A DNA stretch of 64,000 bases from a candidate division TA06 bacterium SM23_40 (GTDB lineage: Bacteria > LJUI01 > SM1-40): assembly GCA_001303705.1 (NCBI GenBank), contig LJUI01000010.1:193-64192 (forward strand), given 5' to 3'. The position numbers and the translations under genes are program-made. Below the pieces are notes generated by a model. It was given only the letters and a program-made list of their open reading frames with translations. It searched no databases and had not been told where the DNA came from. Positions 1,086 to 63,388 of the stretch are shown piece after piece. Within the stretch, counting starts at the first letter, position 1. Each line of letters opens with the position of its first letter.

Positions 1086-2087
1086 CTACAGTTCGAGTCG
1101 AGACATATCCGCGGTCATCGCATACAGTAGAAGCCGCACGCCGCCTTCGATATCTCCCAGGTCGACCATCTCCGATGGAGTATGAACGTATCGACAGGGA
1201 ACCGAGATGACCCCGGTCGGCACACCACTTCTTGTCGCCTGCATCGCCTGCCCGCCCGCCGTCCTGCCATCGCTTATCTCGAGTTGGTACGGAATCCCCC
1301 GCCTCCTGGCTCCGTCGATCAGCAACTGGCGTACCTTGGGGTGCGAGACTATCCCGGCGTCCTTCACCTTGATCGCCGGTCCCTTGCCCAACTGCACTGA
1401 CGCCGCCTGGCCCTCCGGAGTGTCACCCGTGGGCGATACATCGACTGCCATGCCGATCTCTGGATCAACGCTGTAGGCGGAGGTAATGACGCCGCGCCCC
1501 CCCAGTGCCCCCTGGACGGCCAACACAAAATAGAGATCGTTCTTCGCACCGCGCACTCGCTTCGCCGCCTCGATCAGCATGGCGCACCCGACCCGAGCGC
1601 CGAGCGCCTTCCCGACGATTCTCCCCCCCAGATCTGTTGCCTCTCCGTCGAGGACTGCACAATCCCCCACAGAGACGAGTCCTCCGGCACTCTTGGCGTC
1701 GGCGGCGCCGACGTCGAGGTACATCTTCTCCAGCGTCGGCCTCGCCTTCTCGTCGCCGAGTCCCTCCAGACCGATCGTCCCACGCGTACCATTGGACAAA
1801 ATCACCCGCGCGCCCGGAAGCGTCTCCGATTCGAGGCTGCCGACCGCGGCGAATCTCACAAATCCCTTGGCGTCGATGTGCGTGACAACGATACCGCTTT
1901 CGTCCATGTGCGCAGTCAGCATGATCCGCCGGCCACGCCCTCTTCTTCTGGCGATGAGATTGCCCATCACGTCGGTCCTGATCTCATCGACCGACCGCGC
2001 GATCTCTTTGCGGACCACCTCCCGTACCAATGCCTCTTCGCCAGATGGACCGTAGCAGTCCGATAGTCTCTTCAGTAGCTCCCTCAT
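1086..2087 (-). CDS. M42-family (TET/FrvX/YsdC-like) peptidase paralog 1, apparently non-catalytic
   Basis: Start moved to ATG 2087 (MRELLKRLSDCYGPSGEE), 44 nt after the upstream stop. HMDE motif is present (LTAHMDESG). The DDR motif is LGAR and the QEE motif is QGA (LAVQGALGGRG). Confidence 0.8.
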   Translation of the reverse strand: MRELLKRLSDCYGPSGEEALVREVVRKEIARSVDEIRTDVMGNLIARRRGRGRRIMLTAHMDESGIVVTHIDAKGFVRFAAVGSLESETLPGARVILSNGTRGTIGLEGLGDEKARPTLEKMYLDVGAADAKSAGGLVSVGDCAVLDGEATDLGGRIVGKALGARVGCAMLIEAAKRVRGAKNDLYFVLAVQGALGGRGVITSAYSVDPEIGMAVDVSPTGDTPEGQAASVQLGKGPAIKVKDAGIVSHPKVRQLLIDGARRRGIPYQLEISDGRTAGGQAMQATRSGVPTGVISVPCRYVHTPSEMVDLGDIEGGVRLLLYAMTADMSRLEL

Positions 2088-2130
2088 GTGCGACCCTGCC
2101 CCAATGCGATTACCCTCAATTTCGCCGCCG

Positions 2131-3198
2131 TCACCTTGCCGATCGCCGATGACCAGCCCTGTGAACCGCCTGCCTCCATCCCGGCCGTGCGAGACGCTCG
2201 AGCAGCAGAGCCACCAGTTCTGCGGCATGTCTGATGTCGTGCAGGCTGGCCAGAGAGGCCGGACCATGGAGATATCGGCACGGTACTGAGATGACGGCCA
2301 CCCGGGCTCCTCCTCCCGCCACGGCGATTCTCCCCCCGTCGGTTCCTCCGACCATCGGCCGCTTCGTCTGGAGAGGAATCCCCTCCTGTTCGGCTATCTC
2401 CCTGATGAGTGCCACCAGTCCTGGATCGCAGATGACCGTCCTATCCATCGTCGTCACCGTCGGACCCTCTCCCAGACGCGGCGTGGTCCCTACATCCTTC
2501 CTTCTGGGGAAATCCGCCGCTGCCGTCCCCTCGATGACAATGCCAATGTCGGGCCTCAGCCGCTCGGCAGCGACCCGCGCCCCCCTCAATCCCACCTCTT
2601 CCTGCACAGTGAATGCGAGCGAGACGGGAATAGACTGATGGGCCTTCGCTATCTCCACGAGCACAGCGCAGCCGACACGATCATCAAACGCCTTCCCTTT
2701 GATAACGGTCCGCCCGTACCGCTCGAATGTTGTAGCGAAGACAGCATAGGATCCAACGGGCGCCAGCCGTTTCGCCTCCTCTGCTGTCGACGCGCCGATG
2801 TCGAGGAATAGATCCTTGAGCTTGACCGTCTCTTTCCTCGCCTCGGGAGTCAGCAGGTGAAGTGGCTTCATGCCAACGACTCCGGGGCGCTTCTCGTTGC
2901 CCACGAGGAACGTCTTGGCCGGCAGGAGTCGGACATCGATGCCGCCAACCGTGCGGAATCTGAGTTGCCCTCGTTCTTCATGCCCTACGACCATCAGACC
3001 GACCTCATCCATGTGGGCTGCCACCATCACCCGCGGGCCACGTTCCCCCCTCCGCGTCTGCTTGACCGAGAACAGATTCCCCAGGGCGTCTGTCTCCAGG
3101 CGGTCGACATGATCCGCAATTTCGCGCCTGATCAGCCCGCGCACCTCACCTTCATCCCCGGATACGCCGCTCGCGTTCGATAATGCTTCCAGGATCAC
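2131..3198 (-). CDS. M42-family aminopeptidase paralog 2
   Basis: 355 aa. Motifs AAHMDEVG, AFDDRVGC, TVQEEVGLRGA, CRYLHGP. Confidence 0.88.
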   Translation of the reverse strand: MILEALSNASGVSGDEGEVRGLIRREIADHVDRLETDALGNLFSVKQTRRGERGPRVMVAAHMDEVGLMVVGHEERGQLRFRTVGGIDVRLLPAKTFLVGNEKRPGVVGMKPLHLLTPEARKETVKLKDLFLDIGASTAEEAKRLAPVGSYAVFATTFERYGRTVIKGKAFDDRVGCAVLVEIAKAHQSIPVSLAFTVQEEVGLRGARVAAERLRPDIGIVIEGTAAADFPRRKDVGTTPRLGEGPTVTTMDRTVICDPGLVALIREIAEQEGIPLQTKRPMVGGTDGGRIAVAGGGARVAVISVPCRYLHGPASLASLHDIRHAAELVALLLERLARPGWRQAVHRAGHRRSAR

Positions 3199-3228
3199 CC
3201 CTCGTCCCCTCTGTCCGTGACGAACTGT

Positions 3229-4299
3229 CTATGCTCGGTCTTGCGTGATCGAATCGGGATTCAGAAGAAACCCGACATCTACGAGCTCGGCGCTGAATTC
3301 AACCAGTAATCTGGCGGCCCCCTCCACGTCAGCTGTGGCTACCACCTCTGCGGAGGTGTGCATATAACGAACGGGAATCCCCACGAGCGCCGTAGGCACC
3401 CCCTCACGCGTCAGCTGAATCGCGGCAGCATCTGTGCCCCGTGGGCGCGGCTCCGCCTCGTCCTGAATGGGGATCCCCTCTCTCTCCGCCGTCTCCATGA
3501 GACGGGCACGCAGCCGGGGATGATATCCCGGTCCCACCCCGAGGGTCGGTCCTCCGCCGAGTTCATACGTCTCGTACTTATCGACTCCGAGCATATCACC
3601 GTACGTGACATCGAGTACGACCGCGAGGCCGGGATCGAGCCCGTAGGCGCTGACGGTCGCCCCGAGATGCGCGATTTCCTCCTGGACCGTGGCGACTGCG
3701 TAGATATCCCACCGATGGTCCCGCCGGGCCAACTCCTCCACGGCGAGCACAAGGGCTGCCAGGCTTGCGCGGTCATCAAACGCCTTCGCCGCGCACAACC
3801 CCCCTTCCATCTCCATGAACTTCCGCGATAGGGCGATGGGATCGCCGGTCTTGACACGACGTCTCACAGTCCGCTCGGTGAGCCCGACATCTATGAATAG
3901 ATCTTCGATCTCTACTACCCGATCTTTCTCTTCTTCCAGCTGCAAATGAGGGGGTTCGGACCCGATCACTCCCGGCAGCCGCTTCTCACCATGAACCATG
4001 ACCTCCTGACCGGGAAGTACTCTCGGATCGATCCCGCCGACAGCGGCAAAGCGCAGCACACCGCCGCGGTCAACCTTCCTGACGATGAGGCCGATCTCAT
4101 CGGCATGTGCCGTCAGAAGCAGCCTCCCGCCATCTTCGCTACCCGGGAGGAGCGCGATTCGATTCCCGACGCGATCGACCTCAACCACGGCCCCGGCAGA
4201 TCGCATTTCCTCCTCGACGACCTTCCCGATCCCCGCCTCGAACCCGCTGATGCCGTCACTTTCACTCAGCCTCTGGAGCAACTCTATAGTCCGACCCAC
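3229..4299 (-). CDS. M42-family aminopeptidase paralog 3
   Basis: 356 aa. Motifs TAHADEIG, AFDDRASL, TVQEEIAHLGA, VRYMHTSAE. Confidence 0.88.
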   Translation of the reverse strand: MGRTIELLQRLSESDGISGFEAGIGKVVEEEMRSAGAVVEVDRVGNRIALLPGSEDGGRLLLTAHADEIGLIVRKVDRGGVLRFAAVGGIDPRVLPGQEVMVHGEKRLPGVIGSEPPHLQLEEEKDRVVEIEDLFIDVGLTERTVRRRVKTGDPIALSRKFMEMEGGLCAAKAFDDRASLAALVLAVEELARRDHRWDIYAVATVQEEIAHLGATVSAYGLDPGLAVVLDVTYGDMLGVDKYETYELGGGPTLGVGPGYHPRLRARLMETAEREGIPIQDEAEPRPRGTDAAAIQLTREGVPTALVGIPVRYMHTSAEVVATADVEGAARLLVEFSAELVDVGFLLNPDSITQDRA

Positions 4300-9737: not shown

Positions 9738-12700
9738 ATGCTGAGAAAAACCTCATCGTCTGCCACTGAGAAAGTGATCACCGCACCGATGACTGAGCAG
9801 CTCTCATCGCTCCGCGAAGTCCTCGACGAGAGCTACCATATGCTGGAGATGAGTGGCCGCCGTGGCGGTTTACGTGCCGCTATTGCGAGCGCGACGGCGA
9901 GAGATGTCGAGATTCGCCGTATCCTGGCCACAGTACTCGAACGCCTTGTCGGCTATCTGCAGGCATCGGCGGCGTGCATTCATCTCCTCGATCCTCACGA
10001 AGACGTGCTGACCCTCAAAGCCCAATCCGGCCTCAGTGGTATCGCCCGGAGACAACTCTCCTCACTTGACATTCATGATCCCCCAATGGACAGAGTCATC
10101 GCCCGGAGGACCTCCTATTTCGCCACTGAGCGATGGCCTGCCGGCGAGCCCCCGCCTCAACTGATAGCGCACCTGCCCCGCGGCCTCACCGCCATGTTGC
10201 CCCTCGCTTCGCGAAATCGAGTCATCGGGACGCTCATGATCATCTATCGGGCACCCAGATTCTTCCCTCCATCGAGGACCCGTTTTCTCATCGCCCTCGG
10301 ATGCGAACTGGGGAGAGCAATCGAAGACGCCATGTTGATCGACAAGCTCAGAGACTCCGAGGCCAGACACCGCCTCCTCCTGGAGAGCGCGGGCGATCTC
10401 ATCTATGGCATGGACCTCAATGGGCATACATTCTACGTCAGTCCCAGCTCCAAAGCCATTACCGGATATGAACCCGACGAATTTCTGAGCGGGAGCGTCA
10501 CTCCTCTCCGGATGTGCGTCAAGGAAGACCGTGATGCGCTCAAGGCTATGTTCCGGAGCGCGACACGGGAGGGGACAAGGGGTACCATGGAGTTCCGCGC
10601 GCGCCGGAAGGATGGCCAGGAGGTCTGGCTCTCCGCTACATGGGCCCCGCTCCGCGACAGCGCAGGAGTACACCGTGGAATTCAGGGCACCGTGCGAGAC
10701 GTATCGGCCAACAAACGGGCTGAGGAAGAGCTGCGCCGGCGAAATATCGAACTCGCCGCCATCAACGCAGTCGCCTCGACACTGACCGAGTCGATCGACC
10801 CGGATCAAATGCTCAATCGCACTATCGACGTCGTACTCGAAGTGATCGCCGCCAAGGCCGGAAGGATCGCAGTCCTCCTCGAAGATACTCGCACATTACG
10901 AACTGCTGTTTCGCGCAACATCCCGCAGCGCGTTCTCGACCAGATCGCAGAATTCGAACTCGGCGACGAATGGAGCGGCATGGTTGCTGCGACCGGAGAG
11001 TCCCTCGCGATCGAGGACTTCCCTTCATCAGCCTACGTGCGCCATGCTCATCCCGCAATTGTCGAATGGGGATTGAGAGCGCTCCTGAGCGTCCCCATCC
11101 GCTCCAAAGGACGGGTACTGGGAGTCATGGAAGTCGTCCACGATGTCCCCCACCGGTTCACAGGCAGGGATCTCGACCTCCTCTCAGCAATCGCGAATCA
11201 GCTCGGGCTCGCCCTCGACAACGCCCGGCTGTACGAGCATATGCGCCGCGAGGCCAGAGAACTGGGAATCCTCCACCGCTCCACATCCGATCTGCTCCCC
11301 CTTGCGCCGCTGGAGAGTAAACTCCGACACATAATGAGGACTCTTGAGGAGATATTCGGATATGACGGGGGGTGGCTCGGCCTCGTTGACGAAGAGGGAA
11401 CCAAACTCGTGGGGGCAGCGGGATTCGGAAGAGAGGTGCCAGACGACACGATAGGACTCGAGCTCCCCCTCGATCCGACATTCAGGAACGCCGCCGTTCT
11501 CGCTGTTCTTGAGCGGAAACCCAATGTGATACCAGATCCCCCCCACGATCCCCGGTGCGCAGATCAGCGGGGGAGTGTACCGCTGCGGGGAGCGCGATGT
11601 CTCGCCAACGCACCGATACTCTCGGGCGACCGTATCTTCGGTGTCCTCACCGTTGGGCGCTATGCGCTGGGGGCACCGATAACCGACCGTGACATCGAAC
11701 TCCTGGAAACGTTCGCCAGCCATGTAGCTATCACCATCGAAGGGGCGCGCCTGCTCGAAGATGCGAGGAGGCGGGCCGACCAGGCAGCATCACTCTGCCG
11801 AATCGCGTCTTCACTGACGCAGACTCTGGATGTACAGGATGTGCTAGATCAGATCGTCGCCGATGCAGCCAATCTCTTCTCCGTTGAGATCGCCAGCCTG
11901 TTCCTGTTCGACGAAGCCGCCGGAGATCTTATCGGCAGGGCAGTAGTCGGCCTGGAGGCCTCGGCGCTTGATAACTTCCGCATTCCAATCTCGCTCAGCA
12001 TGACAGCCCGGGAGGCAGCCAGAACTCTCGGGCCGGTCCTCGTCCATGAACCCTCTGAAGATGGGAGAATCCCGGAGCGTCTTCTTGGGCGATTCGCCAT
12101 CACCTCTTCTCTCACTGTGCCCATAGTGTTGAGGGACAAGCTCCTCGGCGTTCTCTTTCTCGATCATGTTTCGAACATCCGACGCTTCAGTCAGAGCGAC
12201 ATCGATCTGGCCTCCAGATTCGCGCATCAAGCAGCCGCCGCGATCGGCAATGCCCGGCTGTTCGATCAAGCCCTGCGCCGCGCGCACCAGCTCGCCGAAC
12301 AGATCGAGGCCCATGCACAAGAACTCGAAGACACCAGGAGCCAGCTCACTACATCGCAATACCTCGCCTGGCTAGGACAGCTTGCTGCCGGCCTCGGACA
12401 CGAGATCCGCTCACCCCTCAGCGTCATAAAAAACGCTGCCTACTACCTGAAGACGCAGCTCGTCGATGCGGATACAACCATACGACGGCATCTCGAGATG
12501 ATCCAGCAGGAGGTGGCGGCATCCGAGCGGATCATCGGACACCTGCTTGACTTCTCTCGCGGCAGGAAGCTGACACATCTGCCCGTGAATCTCCGGGATT
12601 TGATCGAGTCGACGATCGAGCAGATCGAAATCCCCTCGCACGTCACACTCACAACGCACATCGACGAAGATCTCCCCTCAATCATCGGTGATAGCGAACT

Positions 12701-39055: not shown

Positions 39056-39307
39056 TACAGCAGATGTCGTGGGAAGCAGATGTCATGGATGGTAGATGGA
39101 GGTTGACTGCGGGTCGCCGGCCACGTGTGGAGGATGCTGGCGAGGAGCCGCACATCCGGGGAGAATCGACCCGAAGCACGGATCGGGAGGGCGGCGATTG
39201 AGTATCTCTCCGATGGGTATCTCTGAAGTATAGCCGGTCCCTGACAACGATTGGGCGTTGGCGAGCGCGTCCCCGGTCTTGAGCATGATCATGGAGGATA
39301 TCCGATT

Positions 39308-40672
39308 ATGAAAACACCAGTAGAGTACATCAACTCGAATGGCGAACGGTTTGTCCAGGAGCTGGCTGACATGCTGCGTATTGAGAGCGTCAGCACGGAT
39401 CCGGCGTATCGGGACGAGGTTGCCAGGTGTGCCGGGTACATCCACAGACATCTCGAGAAGGTCGGGTTCAAGGTACAGACGTTCGAGACGAAGCGCCATC
39501 CGATCGTCTATGCAGAGTGGCTCGGGGCGAAGGGGCGTCCTACTGCCCTCATCTATGGTCATTACGATGTGCAGCCGCCTGATCCGCTGGAGCTGTGGAG
39601 GACCGGCCCGTTCGAGCCAACGATGGCCGACGGGAACATATATGCGAGGGGTGCGAGCGATGACAAGGGGCAGTTCCTCGCCCATGTCAAGGCTGCCGAG
39701 GCGTACCTCAAGACCGCGGGTCAGCTTCCAGTGAATGTCAAATTCATCCTCGAGGGGGAGGAGGAGGTGGGGAGCGGGAGCCTCGCCCAGTTCATAAAAT
39801 CCCATACCGATCTGCTGCGGGCTGATGTCCTGATCGTCTCCGATTCCTCGCAGTTCGAGGCGGGGATCCCGGCGATCACGTATGCATTGCGGGGGATCGT
39901 GGCCGCGGAAGTAGTTGTTCGGGGGCCGAATCAGGATCTCCATTCCGGGGGCTTCGGCGGATCGGTCGCGAATCCGGCTAACGTCCTGGCGAAGATCATC
40001 TCCCAGTTCCACGATGAACATGGGCGGGTGACAGTCCCCGGATTCTATGACGATGTCCTCCCGTTGGCCGAATGGGAGCGCGAGGCCTGGTCTGCTCTTC
40101 CCTTTGACGAAGAGGAGTACCGTCAGTTTCTGGGCGTCAAGGAGCTGTACGGTGAGGAGGGGTTCTCCAGCCTGGAGCGGAGGTGGGCCAGACCTACGCT
40201 TGATGTCAACGGGATCTACGGAGGGTATATGGGGGAGGGGAGTAAGACGATCGTTCCCTCGAGCGCGGGCGCGAAGATCAGCATGCGTCTCGTGCCGAAC
40301 CAGGATCCGGAGCGGATCGGACGATCCTTCGAGGAGCACGTCCGGGCGCTCTGCCCCTCAACCGTCGAGCTCATGATGACGAAGGCCCACGGGTCTCCGC
40401 CGCTCCTCTTGCCGAGTGAGGGGCCAACGATGGATGCGGCCGCTGAGGCGTACCGCAAGGGGTTCGGAGTCAAGCCGGTCCTCATCCGCCAGGGGGGATC
40501 GATCCCGATCGTCACGACGTTCGTTGAACACCTGAAGGTGCCGGCCATCCTCATGGGGTTTGGCCGCCCGGACGACAACCTCCACTCGCCGAACGAGAAG
40601 CTGAACCTGGAGGACTTCCACAAAGCGATCCTGGCCTCGGCCTATCTGCTGGAGGGACTGGGGGGAGCTTAG
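39308..40672 (+). CDS. M20-family dipeptidase
   Basis: ATG 39308 with GGAGGA upstream. ..YGHYDVQPPDPLELW..PFEP...IYARGASDDKGQ.., ..ILEGEEEVGS... Confidence 0.88.
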   Translation: MKTPVEYINSNGERFVQELADMLRIESVSTDPAYRDEVARCAGYIHRHLEKVGFKVQTFETKRHPIVYAEWLGAKGRPTALIYGHYDVQPPDPLELWRTGPFEPTMADGNIYARGASDDKGQFLAHVKAAEAYLKTAGQLPVNVKFILEGEEEVGSGSLAQFIKSHTDLLRADVLIVSDSSQFEAGIPAITYALRGIVAAEVVVRGPNQDLHSGGFGGSVANPANVLAKIISQFHDEHGRVTVPGFYDDVLPLAEWEREAWSALPFDEEEYRQFLGVKELYGEEGFSSLERRWARPTLDVNGIYGGYMGEGSKTIVPSSAGAKISMRLVPNQDPERIGRSFEEHVRALCPSTVELMMTKAHGSPPLLLPSEGPTMDAAAEAYRKGFGVKPVLIRQGGSIPIVTTFVEHLKVPAILMGFGRPDDNLHSPNEKLNLEDFHKAILASAYLLEGLGGA

Positions 40673-40724
40673 GCCGGAGCGCTCTCGGCACGACCTCCGT
40701 GTCGGCTTCCATGAGCTCCTGGTT

Positions 40725-42143
40725 CTAGCGCCTGAGGAGATGGATGGCCTTCCCGATTGCCCCCTCTGCTGCCTCGACAAGCGATTCGGAAAGCGTAGGG
40801 TGAGGATGAATGGTGCGGGCGATATCGTGGATCGTTGCTTCCATCTCGATCGCCAGGGCCGCCTCCCCGATGAGAACACCCGCCTCAGGCCCCACAATGT
40901 GGACCCCCAGCACCTTCTCCGTTCCCTTTTGGGCCACCACGTTCACAAATCCATCTGGTTGAGCCATGGTGAGGGCGCGCCCCAGGGCGGCGAACGGGAA
41001 TCTGCCGACTATTGTCTCTATCCCCTGCGCTTTGGCCTGGGCATCGGTCATTCCGACGGTGGCGATCTCCGGATCGGTGAAGACGACCGCGGGCACGACC
41101 CTCCAATCGACTCTTGCATCTTGTCCTGCAATCACGGTTGCGGCGAGGATCCCCTCCCGCGATGCCTTGTGGGCCAGGAGGGGCTGGCCGGCGACGTCCC
41201 CGATGGCGAAGACGTGCGGGACTGAGGTGCGCATCTGGTCGTCGGTATTGATGAATCCCCCGTCGCCGAGCAGTACACCAGCTGCGTCGAGTCCGAGGTC
41301 TTCGGTATTGGGGCGCCTGCCCACGGTGATGAGAGCTCTGTCGAACGGGATGGTTTCCCTCGTCCCCTCGCGCTCCACTTCGAGAACCGTCCTCCCGTCT
41401 TCCTCCTTCACTCCCACCGCTTTCGTGCGTAGATGCACTTCTATTGCGAGCTGTTTGAGCCGGCGGGCTACGGTCTGGACGAGGCGGAGTTCAGTGCCGG
41501 GAAGGAGCTGGTCAAGCATCTCGACGACTGTGACCGCGCTGCCGAGTTTGGCGTATACCGTGCCCAGCTCGAGCCCGATATACCCGCCGCCGACCACGAG
41601 GAGTCGCGGTGGCACCTCCTGGAGGGCGAGGGCTTCGGTCGAGGTGATGATGCGCTCGCCGTCGAACGGCAGCCCGGGGATCTCGAAGGGGCGGGATCCG
41701 GTGGCGATTATCGCGTGCTCGAATTCGATCTCTCCTGTGCCGTCGGGCGTCCTTACCTCGACCTGTCTCGGCCCGGTGAGCCGGGCGACACCCTGGACCA
41801 CGACCACGCCATTACCTTTGAGGAGCTTTGCAACGCCGTCGGTGAGCCGTCTGATGATATCGGTCTTCCACGCCTGGAGCTTCGATATGTCGACGTTCGC
41901 CCCTTCCACCAACACCCCCATCTCCTGTGCCGTTGTCGACCGGTGCACGAGGTCCGCTGCCGAGATGAGTGCTTTCGACGGGATGCAGCCGTGGTTCAGG
42001 CAGATGCCTCCAGGCGATGGTTCCTTTTCCACGAGCGTCGTCTCCACTCCGAGCTGTGCCGCCCGGATGGCGGCCACATATCCTCCAGGCCCGGCTCCGA
42101 TCACGAGCAGTCGGGTGGACTTCGGGAGTTCGTTCTCCGGCAT
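40725..42143 (-). CDS. lpdA: dihydrolipoyl dehydrogenase
   Basis: LLVIGAGPGGYVAAIRAAQLG, redox disulfide GGICLNHGCIPSKAL, and C-terminal HPHPTLSE dimerisation motif. Confidence 0.94.
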   Translation of the reverse strand: MPENELPKSTRLLVIGAGPGGYVAAIRAAQLGVETTLVEKEPSPGGICLNHGCIPSKALISAADLVHRSTTAQEMGVLVEGANVDISKLQAWKTDIIRRLTDGVAKLLKGNGVVVVQGVARLTGPRQVEVRTPDGTGEIEFEHAIIATGSRPFEIPGLPFDGERIITSTEALALQEVPPRLLVVGGGYIGLELGTVYAKLGSAVTVVEMLDQLLPGTELRLVQTVARRLKQLAIEVHLRTKAVGVKEEDGRTVLEVEREGTRETIPFDRALITVGRRPNTEDLGLDAAGVLLGDGGFINTDDQMRTSVPHVFAIGDVAGQPLLAHKASREGILAATVIAGQDARVDWRVVPAVVFTDPEIATVGMTDAQAKAQGIETIVGRFPFAALGRALTMAQPDGFVNVVAQKGTEKVLGVHIVGPEAGVLIGEAALAIEMEATIHDIARTIHPHPTLSESLVEAAEGAIGKAIHLLRR

Positions 42144-45695: not shown

Positions 45696-45724
45696 TTGAC
45701 AGGGGAGGGAGCGTCCGTCATACT
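45696..45724 (+). promoter_or_regulatory. sigma70-type promoter TTGACA-N17-CATACT
   Basis: TTGACAGGGGAGGGAGCGTCCGTCATACT, 87 nt upstream of GTG 45811. Confidence 0.5.
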
Positions 45725-45810
45725 GGGCCCTGCAGGGCGGTGTGATTCGATCGGGAACGACTGGGAAGAGTGTGCAGCACCATATCGAGAATGACTGGAA
45801 AGGAGGAGCG

Positions 45811-46554
45811 GTGAGGACACTCTATCGGGAGCTGACGAGCGAGGAGATACGGGAGGCCGCCGAGCAAGACTACATCGCGGTGCTCCCTACGGGGTGCATC
45901 GAGCAGCACGGTCCGCATCTTCCCGTCGACGTGGATTTCGGTGGGTTTGAGGATATGCTGGCAGAGGCTGCCGAGCTCGCCCGCGAGACGCATGGTCTCA
46001 AGATTCTGGTGATGCCTCCCATCCCCTACGGGCCAGCAAACGAGCACATGGGGTTCCCGGGAACGATCTCGATCTCCTATCAGACCTATTTCCGGTTCCT
46101 GTTCGAGATTGCTGTCTCTCTTATCGAGCACGGCTTTCGCCGGATCGCACTCGCGCCCGGATGCGGTGGCCACTATCTCGAACCGGCTGCCTGGGAAGTT
46201 CGGAGATGGGCCGCGGAGGAGGGGAAGCCGGCTGTTGTGTGGGTGCTCTCGTGCAACTACTGTGAGATCGGGGAGCGCCTCATCCCCGGGACATCCGATT
46301 TCCATGCGGGAGAGTTCGAGACCTCGTTGGTGCTGGCCACACGGGAGCATCTCGTGAGGAAGGAGAAGATCAGGAGACCGAAGCTGGCCGAATTCTCGTT
46401 CAAATCGGCGTGGTCGATGCACGAAATCTCGGACACCGGGGCATCCGGCGATCCGACGAAAGCAACGAAAGAGACGGGGGAGCAAATCTACCGGAGCATC
46501 ATTGAGTTCTGGTGTGCCCAGTTCAAGGAGATCGAGGAGGGCGAGGCAGAGTAG
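45811..46554 (+). CDS. creatininase-family amidohydrolase
   Basis: GTG 45811 preceded by AGGAGG. Signature ..AVLPTGCIEQHGPHLPVDVD.. and ..HAGEFETS... Confidence 0.85.
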   Translation: MRTLYRELTSEEIREAAEQDYIAVLPTGCIEQHGPHLPVDVDFGGFEDMLAEAAELARETHGLKILVMPPIPYGPANEHMGFPGTISISYQTYFRFLFEIAVSLIEHGFRRIALAPGCGGHYLEPAAWEVRRWAAEEGKPAVVWVLSCNYCEIGERLIPGTSDFHAGEFETSLVLATREHLVRKEKIRRPKLAEFSFKSAWSMHEISDTGASGDPTKATKETGEQIYRSIIEFWCAQFKEIEEGEAE

Positions 46555-46558
46555 GTCC

Positions 46559-46756
46559 CTATCTGGCTGAGTGGATTCTCACGAACCGCGCGATCGACCG
46601 ATCGTAGGTTCGCTCGACTTCTGGAGGGAAAAGACAGCCGGGGAGCTCGCCGTGCTCCCAGTGGTAGGTGATGCATTCACAGCACTTGCCCTTCCGTGAG
46701 CACGGTTCATAGGTGCAGGGGCAGTCGGCACGGTTCTCCTCGATGTTGCATTCCAT
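46559..46756 (-). CDS. small Cys-rich protein (DUF6485-like, probable metal-binding)
   Basis: 65 aa: [54 protein letters not shown]. Seven Cys plus His in a CPC..C..CCxC..H..C pattern. The family name is from memory. Confidence 0.6.
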
Positions 46757-46939
46757 AGTGCGGCTCCCTGTACGGTTCGCAGTATCGTCTGGAGGGGAAT
46801 TCCCGGTCTGTTGCCCCCTGAGCGTATCAGAGGTCGATCGTCCCTGTCAAGCGCATTGCCTGCACAGCCAGTTCCCCACGGCAGCACTCCATTCAGGACA
46901 GCGGGCTGGCGGTAAGGAGAGGGGCTGCCTCAATTGGGC

Positions 46940-60095: not shown

Positions 60096-62216
60096 ATGCG
60101 TATGAGGCGGCTCGCAGGCATGCTGCTGTGCGCGGCTGCGGCGTCCATGATGTCAGGCATGGTCGGGCCGGCCTGGGCAGGTGTAGAGCGAGTCGGTCTG
60201 GTGGAGGTCATGGTGTGCGCAGGCTCACCGGAGAGTGGGCTCTCAGAGACGGCAGCGGCGGACCTGGCGGATCTGTACGGTGAGCGCCAGATGGCGCTCC
60301 TCGCCTATCACCCATCGGACGACGGGCTCGGCACGGTCGAGACAGATGCGCGGATTTCTGCGTACGGTGATCCCGGATTGCCGTTCTGCATCTTTGATGG
60401 CATGGTGCCTGTCGCACACGGCTGGGGGACCGTGCGGCGCGCGTACGAGGGGCGGCTTGACGACCGGCTGGCGCTGGATCAGATGAGCCCGATCGATGTG
60501 GCCGTCGATTTCATCATAGCAGGGCCGGATACCACGGCGAGGGCCCGCGTTCTGGTCGTCGATGCCCTCGGAGCCGGGACCTACGAGGTCCATATGGCAG
60601 TCTTCGAGGACAGCGTGACGCACGAGACCGATCTCTATCGCTATGTCGTGCGCGATCTGCTCGATCCTGAGGCCCTGACGGTCTCCGTTCCGGGCGACAG
60701 CCAGGTCGTCGAGCACACGATCTCAATCGCACCTGAGTGGGAGCTCTCCCGTGTCGGCGTCGTGGCTTTCGTGCAGGATGTAGTATCGATGGAGGTGCTT
60801 CAGGCCGGGGTGTATATTCCCGATGTGCGGAAGGCAGAGCACAATGTCTCCCTGCGCCGGGGAGGGACGAGTCTGATGGTGCTGGAAGAGATCTTCCCCG
60901 GATTCTGGCAGGCGGTATCAGATACGTGCGGGTACCGGAACGTAGGTGCATCGCCTGATGCGGATAGCATGGTCATTCTCCTTGATCAGGATCTCCCCGG
61001 CGGCTGGAGGGCTGACCCGTGTACCGGGGCCATCTGCCTGCTGGGCGATTCTGTTCTCGTCCCGTTTCCCTACCCTCCTGATACGACCGAGGTCCTCCAT
61101 CTCAGTATGTTCCTGGACAGCACACAGGTGCCGGTTAACGACTCACTCATGGCCGAAGCTGCGGGCAGCCGGATCAGGCTCACGGTACGGTCCTACCTCG
61201 ATCCATCCCGTGATCAGACCGTCGAGTATATCCTCGTCACCGATACGATGCCTGATATCATGTTCATCAACGGTGGCGACGAGACCGCGGAGGCTGCGTT
61301 TGCTGGGGCTCTCGAGGAAGGGGAGTACCGCCACACCGTCTGGGATCTGCTCTATCAGCATAGTCCGCAGGCATCCGAGCTGGCCGACTATGACGTCCTC
61401 ATCTGGAACGGCGGCCAGTCAGGTGGGATGACGGCGGGAGAGGAGGCAACGCTTACCGGGTACCTCGACGGCGGGGGAGGGCTGTACCTCTCGAGCCAGG
61501 ACTATCTCGACTACCTACTGCCGGGCGGCAGCACCCTGTCCCAGGACTACCTCCATGTGGGGTCGTGGAGCACAGATGTGGGGTGTGCGGTTGCCACCGG
61601 AGATCCCGGTGACACGATAGGTGACGGCCTGGTGCTCCCGCTCGACTATGCGACCGTCGGATACGATGACTGGTCTGACGAGCTGTACGGCGGGGATCGG
61701 GTCTTCTCGAATCCGGGCGGGAATCGGTGCGCCGTCGCGTACCACTCGGGAGATTCCGGGACGTTTGCCGCGATCTTCACCGCCTTCCCGTTCGAGGCGG
61801 TGAGCGAGGCGGCCCCGGACCCGAACAACAGGGCTACCCTTATGGGTCGAATAGTGGAGTGGCTCCTCTCGCCCATAGCTACTGAGGTGGCGGATGGGCC
61901 TGGTGGCCTCGCCGAGCCGACCGCCTTCTGGCTGGGGCAGAATCGGCCGAATCCCTTCTCGGGCAACACGCTGATCAGCTATGCTGTAGGGCCGGAGAGG
62001 GCGAATGTCTCTATCTCGATCTACAACGTGCAGGGGCAGCTCGTGAGGAGATTGGCGGATGGGGAGCATGCTCCAGGCGGGTACGTCGTCGAGTGGGATG
62101 GCTGCGATCAGCGGGGGCGGCCGACGGGGACCGGGATCTACCTTCTGGCGATGCGGCCGGGAGGAACTGGCGGCGACGAGAAACTGTTATTGAAGAAGAT
62201 GGCGCGCGTCCGGTGA
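60096..62216 (+). CDS. secreted multidomain protein: degenerate thioredoxin-like (SxxS) N-domain, ThuA/DUF4159-like region, C-terminal FlgD-Ig/T9SS-type sorting domain
   Basis: AAGGAGG RBS. Signal peptide MRMRRLAGMLLCAAAASMMSGMVGPAWA. The N-terminal ~230 aa is paralogous to the 62357 gene. C-terminus ..GQNRPNPFSGNTLISYAV..VSISIYNVQGQLVRRL..GGYVVEWDG.DQRGRPTGTGIYLL... Confidence 0.85.
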   Translation: MRMRRLAGMLLCAAAASMMSGMVGPAWAGVERVGLVEVMVCAGSPESGLSETAAADLADLYGERQMALLAYHPSDDGLGTVETDARISAYGDPGLPFCIFDGMVPVAHGWGTVRRAYEGRLDDRLALDQMSPIDVAVDFIIAGPDTTARARVLVVDALGAGTYEVHMAVFEDSVTHETDLYRYVVRDLLDPEALTVSVPGDSQVVEHTISIAPEWELSRVGVVAFVQDVVSMEVLQAGVYIPDVRKAEHNVSLRRGGTSLMVLEEIFPGFWQAVSDTCGYRNVGASPDADSMVILLDQDLPGGWRADPCTGAICLLGDSVLVPFPYPPDTTEVLHLSMFLDSTQVPVNDSLMAEAAGSRIRLTVRSYLDPSRDQTVEYILVTDTMPDIMFINGGDETAEAAFAGALEEGEYRHTVWDLLYQHSPQASELADYDVLIWNGGQSGGMTAGEEATLTGYLDGGGGLYLSSQDYLDYLLPGGSTLSQDYLHVGSWSTDVGCAVATGDPGDTIGDGLVLPLDYATVGYDDWSDELYGGDRVFSNPGGNRCAVAYHSGDSGTFAAIFTAFPFEAVSEAAPDPNNRATLMGRIVEWLLSPIATEVADGPGGLAEPTAFWLGQNRPNPFSGNTLISYAVGPERANVSISIYNVQGQLVRRLADGEHAPGGYVVEWDGCDQRGRPTGTGIYLLAMRPGGTGGDEKLLLKKMARVR

Positions 62217-62356
62217 GGAGGGAACGTGCACCTGGGAGGATGTCAGTTTACAAAGGAAAGGGGGGACGTGCCGGAACGAATGCGAATGCTTGCCGGAAGC
62301 AGCAGGACGTGGAAGTGTCCGGGTGGTCGGAGGATGAGAACTCACCAAGGAGGGTG

Positions 62357-63388
62357 ATGATGAGAGGATTGCGATACTTCGTGCCGGTCGCGATCGCTGC
62401 CGTGATGCTGGCAGCGGCAACGGCGTCTGCCGCCGATCGGGCCGTGCTGACAGAGCTCTTTACGTGGACATCGTGATCGAGCTGTCCAGTCGCGGAAGCG
62501 GCACTCGGCCAGTTGGCCGGGGAATATGATCCGACCCAGATCGCACCGTTAGTGTGGCATGTCGGGAGTGGCGATCCGTTTGCGACCAGCGAGACGTGGG
62601 CTCGGTTCTATTACTACAATCTGGTCTACACGCCCACGTTCATGCTCGATGGGTGGGATCAGTACGTCGGGACTAGTTACTATACAGTCAAATCGAAGCT
62701 CGACAATCACCTGCTCGACCCGAGTTCCGTGTCGATAGATGTTGCGGGTGTGATCGACGACACGGATGGGGAGGTAACTGTCGACGTCACTGCTCTGTAC
62801 ACCATCTCCCAGTTGAATCTGAAGGTCCGGATCGTTCTGTACGAAAGCCGGATCTACTGGGGTGGTAGGTGGTTCGACCACACGGTCCGCGATGTGTTGC
62901 CCGAGCAGAGCATCACGCTGAGCCAGCCGGGCGATCACGTCCAGGTGCAGCGGTCGTTCACGCTCCAGCCCACCTGGGTGGCCGAGAACATGGGGATCGT
63001 GGCCTTCGTTCAGAGCGACGTCGACAAGAGAATTCTCCAGGCAGCCAATCTGACAGAGGCGACAGTCTCCCTCACCCCGCATGCGCTTTCCTTCCCGCGC
63101 GGCAGCACGATGGGGTACTCAGCTCTGCTGATGAGCAACATGGATAGCCCACAGACAGTGGTCGCATACGCCGAGGTCTGGCTCCCGAACGGGAATCCGT
63201 ACCCCGGTAACCCCGTGAAGGGACCTGTCAACGTGCCGCTATCGGCGTATCAGGTGCGGCAGCTCCAGCTCGGGCACCATATTCCGATGGGCGCTCCGCT
63301 CGGCGATTACATCTACAAGGTGACGCTCGAGAACCTCGGCGGAGACGTCATCGATGAGGATGAATTCGTCTTCACAGTGACGGAGTGA
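62357..63388 (+). CDS. candidate selenoprotein: secreted thioredoxin-like protein with UxxC (in-frame TGA at 62474-62476) and C-terminal beta-sandwich module
   Basis: Two same-frame ORFs (62093..62476 and 62513..63388) are separated only by the TGA. AAGGAGG RBS plus ATG 62357/62360 and signal peptide ..AAATASA|AD. The junction reads ELFTWTS-TGA-SSCP, and a hairpin follows the TGA. Confidence 0.7.

Follow-up and report, generated by a model that had tools for sequence, protein, structure and literature searches.

The curated selenoprotein family nearest to the gene described here is GOS_C, predicted from the Global Ocean Sampling data with 74 selenocysteine (Sec)-containing sequences, 312 Cys homologs, a thioredoxin (Trx)-like fold and elements resembling the Sec insertion sequence (SECIS) (PMC2398784). 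The same family, NCBIfam NF045500, appears with the motif UxxC as "Hypothetical protein GOS_C" in Table 1 of a 2026 review of the prokaryotic selenoproteome (PMC13188914). The locus considered here lies in a stretch of 64,000 nucleotides (nt) of contig LJUI01000010.1 from the candidate division TA06 bacterium SM23_40, hereafter the window, in which a reading frame at 62357-63388 on the plus strand is interrupted by an in-frame TGA at 62474-62476. Very likely this frame is a single gene, encoding an exported selenoprotein with 343 amino acids (aa) and with Sec at that UGA. The UxxC motif, the Trx-like fold, the many Cys homologs and the SECIS-like hairpins after the UGA are features that GOS_C and the window gene have in common, whereas the window protein adds a C-terminal beta-sandwich with the motif LPNGNPYPGNP and comes from a bacterium of estuarine sediment, GOS_C being known from ocean surface plankton. 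The gene is probably a relative of GOS_C in a sister clade and, since that family was already predicted in 2008, the protein group as such is not new.

Three other described systems are worth comparing. HBP35 of Porphyromonas gingivalis is a cell-surface protein whose in-vitro thioredoxin activity depends on its two active-site Cys (PMC2907840). Like the predicted window protein, it is exported or located at the cell surface and has a thioredoxin-like CxxC domain to which beta-sandwich domains are appended, but it has Cys in place of Sec, carries a C-terminal domain of the type IX secretion system (T9SS), binds hemin and is only about 12% identical in sequence. The DUF1223 family (PDB 2axo, Atu2684) and the Omp28 family are related closely enough for the window protein to exceed both Pfam gathering thresholds, although the function of these Cys-containing or non-redox families is unknown. 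Omp28 proper is a lipoprotein of Bacteroidota; the window protein instead has a putative signal peptide of the signal peptidase I type and Sec. Finally, the other predicted exported UxxC selenoproteins, namely DsbA-like, DsbG-like and thiol:disulfide interchange proteins (PMC13188914, Table 1), share the thioredoxin fold, the extracytoplasmic location and Sec in place of the N-terminal Cys of CxxC; they belong to another domain family and none has the Omp28/DUF1223 beta-sandwich extension.

One reading frame and the column of the TGA

Direct translation of 62357-63388 gives a single frame of 344 codons, ending with a TGA at 63386-63388, in which the TGA at 62474-62476 is the sole internal stop; Sec would be residue 40 of the 343, and the homologs are continuous across the junction. 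The frame opens with tandem start codons (ATG ATG, 62357/62360), the first of which stands 3 nt downstream of a Shine-Dalgarno sequence, AAGGAGG, read directly at 62347-62353 of the plus strand. The N-terminus, MMRGLRYFVPVAIAAVMLAAATASA followed by ADR, resembles by inspection a signal peptide of the general secretory pathway (62357-62431), which would be cleaved at its ASA/A motif, and comparable hydrophobic N-termini are present in 11/11 Sec-type relatives. The shared frame with its single TGA, the ribosome binding site, the two ATG codons and the signal-peptide-like N-terminus had all been pointed out in a first-pass annotation, made from the letters of the window without database searches, and all were found again at the same positions; the mechanical list of open reading frames (ORFs) splits the gene into 62093-62476 and 62513-63388. 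When read through, the junction is ELFTWTS-TGA-SSCP, with a predicted junction peptide TWTS-U-SSCPVAEAALGQLAGEYDPTQ, in which the UGA read as Sec takes the first position of a UxxC motif and the resolving Cys of U-S-S-C is encoded by TGT at 62483-62485.

With the post-TGA protein as query, an exhaustive HMMER search returned 1217 relatives. Among them, about 60 full-length homologs have Cys at the column of the TGA, where it opens the CxxC pair of the motif (A/V)ELFT(A/G)TW-C-x-x-C-P; this bears out the redox motif (ExFTxTxCxxCP) named in the first-pass annotation. About 25 relatives are N-truncated gene calls, and inspection of the DNA of nine of them and of three close orthologs revealed 11 other genes in which a TGA occupies exactly this column. 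They come from at least eight further metagenomes or metagenome-assembled genomes (MAGs), and each has its own in-frame signal peptide, with Sec at residue 35-40. Two of them are orthologs, one 71% identical and syntenic (L001, TGA at 9914, TQTG-U-PSCP) and one 38% identical (L005, 106, GATW-U-GFCQ). Four form tandem pairs, in L017 (1498, TATW-U-VYCP; 3578, TSTT-U-PVCP) and in L018 (242, EVC-U-GYVP; 1331, VHC-U-GYIP), and the others are found in L019 (334, MAG-U-NGYDP), L021 (1462, GTW-U-GFCP), L022, an NCBI MAG (1093, ATW-U-PYCR), L023 (1471, SVF-U-GYCP) and L025 (222, YPT-U-GYCP). An alignment of this column across taxa, proposed beforehand as a check, thus gives Cys in the full-length homologs and TGA in these 11 genes, and independent orthologs and paralogs keep the TGA within one frame rather than being genuinely two genes.

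Moreover, the stretch DRxVLxELFT on the 5' side of the TGA is kept as protein in the same frame among the relatives. Between the window gene and L001 the ratio of nonsynonymous to synonymous substitution rates (dN/dS) is about 0.40 over the 38 codons 5' of the TGA and 0.38 over the 26 codons 3' of it, and this similarity on the two sides fits one translated ORF. A scan of metagenomes returned only two loci, both of the Cys type. P0020 was considered as a further TGA-type gene and rejected, its apparent N-truncation being a miscalled start of a Cys-type gene.

Some of the relatives depart from the UxxC pattern. Both genes of L018 read C-U-G-Y-(V/I)-P, with a Cys at -1 and none at +3, that is, a CU-type centre, and the gene of L019 reads U-N-G-Y-D-P, with no Cys at +3 and one at -6. 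The tandem Sec-type duplicates extend over 1393-3369 and 3476-4869 in L017 and over 125-1162 and 1214-2254 in L018, and each of them was called as a mini-ORF of 34-39 aa plus an N-truncated main ORF.

Family scans were run with U replaced by C. The window protein passes the gathering thresholds (GA) of Pfam DUF1223 (PF06764, 46.8 bits vs GA 30.7) and Omp28 (PF11551, 43.9 bits vs GA 34.9), and its top NCBIfam match is NF045500, "Omp28-related selenoprotein" (59.1 bits, E = 4.9e-16), where residues 17-231 align to positions 28-265 of the 377-position profile; an Omp28-related protein is also what had been guessed from the motif. NF045500 is likewise the best family match of 10/10 scanned Sec-type relatives, at 48-112 bits. 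The Omp28/DUF1223-like domain of the window protein, which consists of a thioredoxin-like subdomain and a beta-sandwich, corresponds to 62432-63049, and PDB 2axo is matched by sequence (E = 3.4e-6). In the AlphaFold2 model of the post-TGA part (predicted local distance difference test, pLDDT, 94.8), helix alpha1 begins at the resolving Cys and two beta-sandwiches follow. P0012, a full-length homolog of the Cys type, was modeled separately (pLDDT 91.1), with beta1 at residues 28-34, C38-x-x-C41 next and alpha1 at 41-54; as modeled, this is the geometry of a classic thioredoxin-fold active site, with CxxC between beta1 and alpha1. The top PDB match of the P0012 model by Foldseek is HBP35 of P. 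gingivalis (5y1a, E = 5.7e-14, TM 0.52/0.58), which the model of the window protein also matches; 2axo is a further fold match of the P0012 model (TMt 0.66).

Hairpins downstream of the UGA

The model of the bacterial SECIS (bSECIS) element requires a loop of 3-9 nt, a stem of at least 4 base pairs (bp) and a G in the first two loop positions, together with a spacing of 16-37 nt after the UGA and a minimum free energy (MFE) of -7.5 kcal/mol or lower (PMC13188914). Two hairpins of the window fit this model, and both lie where the first-pass annotation had drawn them. Candidate A (62478-62507, plus strand) has a 5-bp stem, GUCGC (62489-62493) with GCGGC (62498-62502), and a GGAA loop (62494-62497) that starts 17 nt after the UGA; its energy is -6.5 kcal/mol alone and -14.2 kcal/mol with an optional lower stem, CGAG (62478-62481) with CUCG (62504-62507), and it is only with this lower stem that it reaches -7.5 kcal/mol. 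Candidate B (62504-62521, plus strand), CUCGGCC-AGUU-GGCCGGG, has 7 bp, an energy of -11.9 kcal/mol and a loop 34 nt after the UGA.

A post-UGA hairpin fitting the bSECIS loop position and loop G is present in 12/12 Sec-type genes, and in 8/12 it reaches the limit of -7.5 kcal/mol as a simple hairpin. In 8/12 there is a hairpin with a loop start 17-19 nt after the UGA, with stems of different sequence: those of hairpin A are GUCGC/GCGGC, GCCGC/GCGGC, CCACUGC/GCAGUGG, CGCCGGC/GCUGGCG, GGCUG/CAGCC and CCAUC/GAUGG. Hairpin B with its AGUU loop recurs in L001, L017a and L019 with compensatory changes in the stem (GGCC/GGCC vs GAUC/GAUC), and L021 has a related hairpin with a GUU loop at the same spacing of 34 nt, while in the L005/L018 clade the hairpin instead has its loop, GGA or UGGAU, at a spacing of 28-29 nt. 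The registers of the hairpins shift by 1-2 nt between genes (loops of 3, 4 and 5 nt), so that no single dot-bracket structure fits all of them, and for this reason the column-wise counting of covariation was dropped.

Since GC-rich coding sequence folds easily, the hairpins were compared with a null of synonymous recodings generated with the codon usage of the gene concerned, the statistic being the best simple hairpin with a loop start 15-37 nt after the UGA and a G in the first two loop positions. Its total for the 12 Sec-type genes is -93.0 kcal/mol against -32.7 +/- 9.3 kcal/mol in the null (z = -6.45), and 0/2000 recodings reach this value. In a small set of five controls, four Cys-type genes and the Ser-type paralog of the window, the same statistic at the homologous position gives z = +0.39, and 4/5 have no qualifying hairpin. 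The SECIS-like hairpins are thus selectively maintained in the Sec-type genes and absent as an excess in the Cys and Ser controls. For the window alone, the best hairpin by this statistic is B, which is better than its synonymous recodings (P = 0.036).

Weighing the readings of the internal UGA

Several results weigh against the decoding of this UGA as Sec. No selA, selB, selD or tRNA-Sec gene was found within the 64-kb window or in any fetched relative locus. The 59.1 bits of the window protein fall far short of the curated NF045500 cutoff of 200 bits, which points to a sister clade and not to a curated member of that family. Hairpin A of the window, with its GGAA loop, does not by itself outperform synonymous recodings (P = 0.30). 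The MFE of the whole 60-nt segment gives no signal in the window either (z = +0.15), and it was for this reason that the position-restricted hairpin statistic was adopted; in fact, the whole-segment measure is uninformative, because any recoding of a segment with 60% GC folds well. No SECIS family of Rfam is matched, whether the gathering threshold or E <= 10 is applied. Furthermore, a 23-nt deletion frameshifts the signal peptide of the same gene in L004 (TA06 SM1_40). This deletion, at about position 7333 of L004 (JGI contig SMTZ1_10016169, KPL07431.1) and equivalent to 62392-62414 of the window, leaves the ATG out of frame and is due either to a pseudogene at the level of the strain or to an artefact of assembly.

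Of the alternatives, the one that survives best, although it is improbable, is that the UGA at 62474 is read through without selenium, with Cys, Trp or Gly inserted by near-cognate or suppressor decoding, or with Cys inserted by the Sec machinery. The lack of sel genes and of tRNA-Sec in the window and in the fetched loci would agree with it, and the Cys/TGA column is equally compatible with the insertion of Cys. On the other hand, the stops of the 34 annotated genes of the window are TGA in 18 cases, including recF and the candidate gene itself, TAG in 15 and TAA in one, so that UGA is not reassigned, as had been anticipated from fewer genes, and no general suppression takes place. Moreover, the 12 TGA-type genes maintain a hairpin after the UGA and the Cys-type ones do not, and the nearest curated family, NF045500, is a selenoprotein family. 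The UGA-specific maintenance of a downstream structure is a hallmark of SelB-dependent recoding, and its occurrence here argues for SelB-dependent decoding.

It is less probable still that the TGA is a true stop, which would leave a 39-aa leader and a protein starting at TTG 62513, or imply termination followed by reinitiation. This is how gene callers and GenBank present the gene, as a hypothetical protein of 291 aa from TTG 62513 (KPJ53820.1, KPK70778.1, UniRef100_A0A0S8GGN9). The identical truncated call recurs in the TA06 DG_24 and SM23_40 MAGs and in JGI, ENA and Logan contigs; a read error is excluded by this recurrence across several independent assemblies. However, TTG 62513 is the only start of the downstream ORF and no Shine-Dalgarno sequence precedes it, in line with what had been noticed at first, and a protein beginning there would lose the signal peptide, beta1 and the first redox residue, which are contiguous in the approximately 60 Cys-type homologs. 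In addition, the called starts vary in their place after the TGA among the orthologs, as is the behaviour of gene callers at internal stops, and the conserved DRxVLxELFT lies upstream of the TGA in the same frame. Lastly, the deletion in L004 might raise the suspicion that a Cys-type gene shows the TGA through a nonsense mutation, as a pseudogene, or through faulty sequencing or assembly. This is effectively excluded, since the TGA is conserved in three orthologs (97%, 71% and 38% identity) and in eight further genes of other metagenomes, as well as in several independent assemblies with the identical truncated call, with dN/dS near 0.4 on either side of it.

The Sec reading put forward in the first-pass annotation is therefore supported by the Cys column, the conserved TGA, the SECIS-like hairpins and the use of TGA as a normal stop. 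As to its wider meaning, we lean, with some reserve, towards the view that the window gene forms, together with the 11 relatives of the TGA type, a separate and so far uncurated clade of exported Omp28/HBP35-like selenoproteins that occurs in TA06 and related uncultured lineages, with tandem duplicates and active-site variants (C-U-G-Y-V/I-P; U without Cys at +3), and that these genes provide the first evidence of Sec decoding in TA06. A survey of the literature found nothing relevant linking TA06 with selenoproteins, Omp28 with a selenoprotein, or DUF1223 with selenocysteine. If the Sec machinery were confirmed, candidate division TA06 would join the Sec-using lineages, and the short list of exported bacterial selenoproteins would gain an HBP35-like extracytoplasmic redox protein. 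For public annotation, the entries KPJ53820.1 and KPK70778.1 would be corrected, as their N-terminal truncation deprives them of both signal peptide and catalytic residue. An entire clade of Sec-containing relatives, split at the TGA by gene callers, escapes NF045500, and this model would not rescue the 291-aa annotation, which scores below its cutoff. The window gene opens no new mechanism, no theme being commoner among selenoproteins than UxxC in a thioredoxin fold.

Proposed function, C-terminal domain and neighbouring genes

Under the Sec reading, translation would start at ATG 62357 behind the strong ribosome binding site, and the UGA at 62474-62476 would be decoded by SelB and Sec-tRNA(Sec), both recruited by a stem-loop within the next ~45 nt, which may be hairpin A, hairpin B or both; the ribosome would then read on as far as the terminal TGA at 63386. 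Export across the inner membrane, via the Sec translocon, would be directed by the signal peptide. The mature protein would have its U-S-S-C redox centre at the beta1-loop-alpha1 region of a thioredoxin-like domain of Omp28/DUF1223 type, followed by the two beta-sandwiches, and the U40-x-x-C43 selenenylsulfide couple would drive thiol-disulfide exchange with a putative substrate outside the cytoplasm. By analogy with HBP35, its proposed functional counterpart, the window protein is most likely an extracytoplasmic thiol/selenol-disulfide oxidoreductase.

The C-terminal beta-sandwich (63062-63385, plus strand) comprises about 110 aa, is all-beta in the model and has no Pfam or NCBIfam match. It ends with F-x-F-T-V-T-E. 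Of the best 150 representative matches, about 50 share this domain, mostly at the extreme C-terminus, while their N-terminal parts are unrelated (e.g., P0025, P0034, P0042, P0062 and P0141). A scan of genome contigs keyed on PNGNPYPGN returned only relatives of this domain, in Gemmatimonadota MAGs (L006-L014). The LPNGNPYPGNP domain may be an uncharacterised sorting or anchoring domain. No match to the T9SS C-terminal domain (Por_Secre_tail/TIGR04183) was obtained in the window selenoprotein, whereas a sorting domain of that type is present in the adjacent paralog and in several Sec-type relatives.

This paralog, a 706-aa protein encoded at 60096-62216 on the plus strand, has a FlgD_ig/T9SS-type (Por_Secre_tail) C-terminus, an Omp28-like N-domain and a weak ThuA-like middle region. 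It is 28% identical to the window protein (E = 3e-22) and, as had been observed by eye, aligns without gaps across the motif segment with Ser-x-x-Ser opposite TGA-x-x-Cys, that is, S-P-E-S for U-S-S-C; it is presumably a redox-inactive surface relative. The two genes are syntenic in the orthologous loci L001 and L004.

Exact protein matches place the window among TA06 MAGs from the White Oak River estuary, with DnaA identical to KPJ53796.1, KPK70757.1 and KPL05935.1 and the adjacent paralog identical to KPK70776.1 and KPL07430.1, a combination that points to SM23_40. The window, with a GC content of 60.4%, covers the origin region of the chromosome (parAB, gidAB, mnmE, yidC, dnaA, dnaN, recF, gyrB and gyrA), and tRNA-Met is the only tRNA encoded in it. 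A scan of the window for other long TGA-interrupted frames gave two, at 39083-40942 and 45718-46929 on the minus strand, both rejected for their Arg-rich, antisense-like translations. At 39083-40672 and 45718-46554 there are two pairs of ORFs on opposite strands, with no Pfam match on the strand tested; their minus-strand frames look antisense, and the real genes are probably those at 39251-40672 and 45742-46554 on the plus strand. Finally, three consecutive paralogs of M42 glutamyl-aminopeptidase (1086-4299, minus strand) lie beside parAB and gidAB in the origin region.

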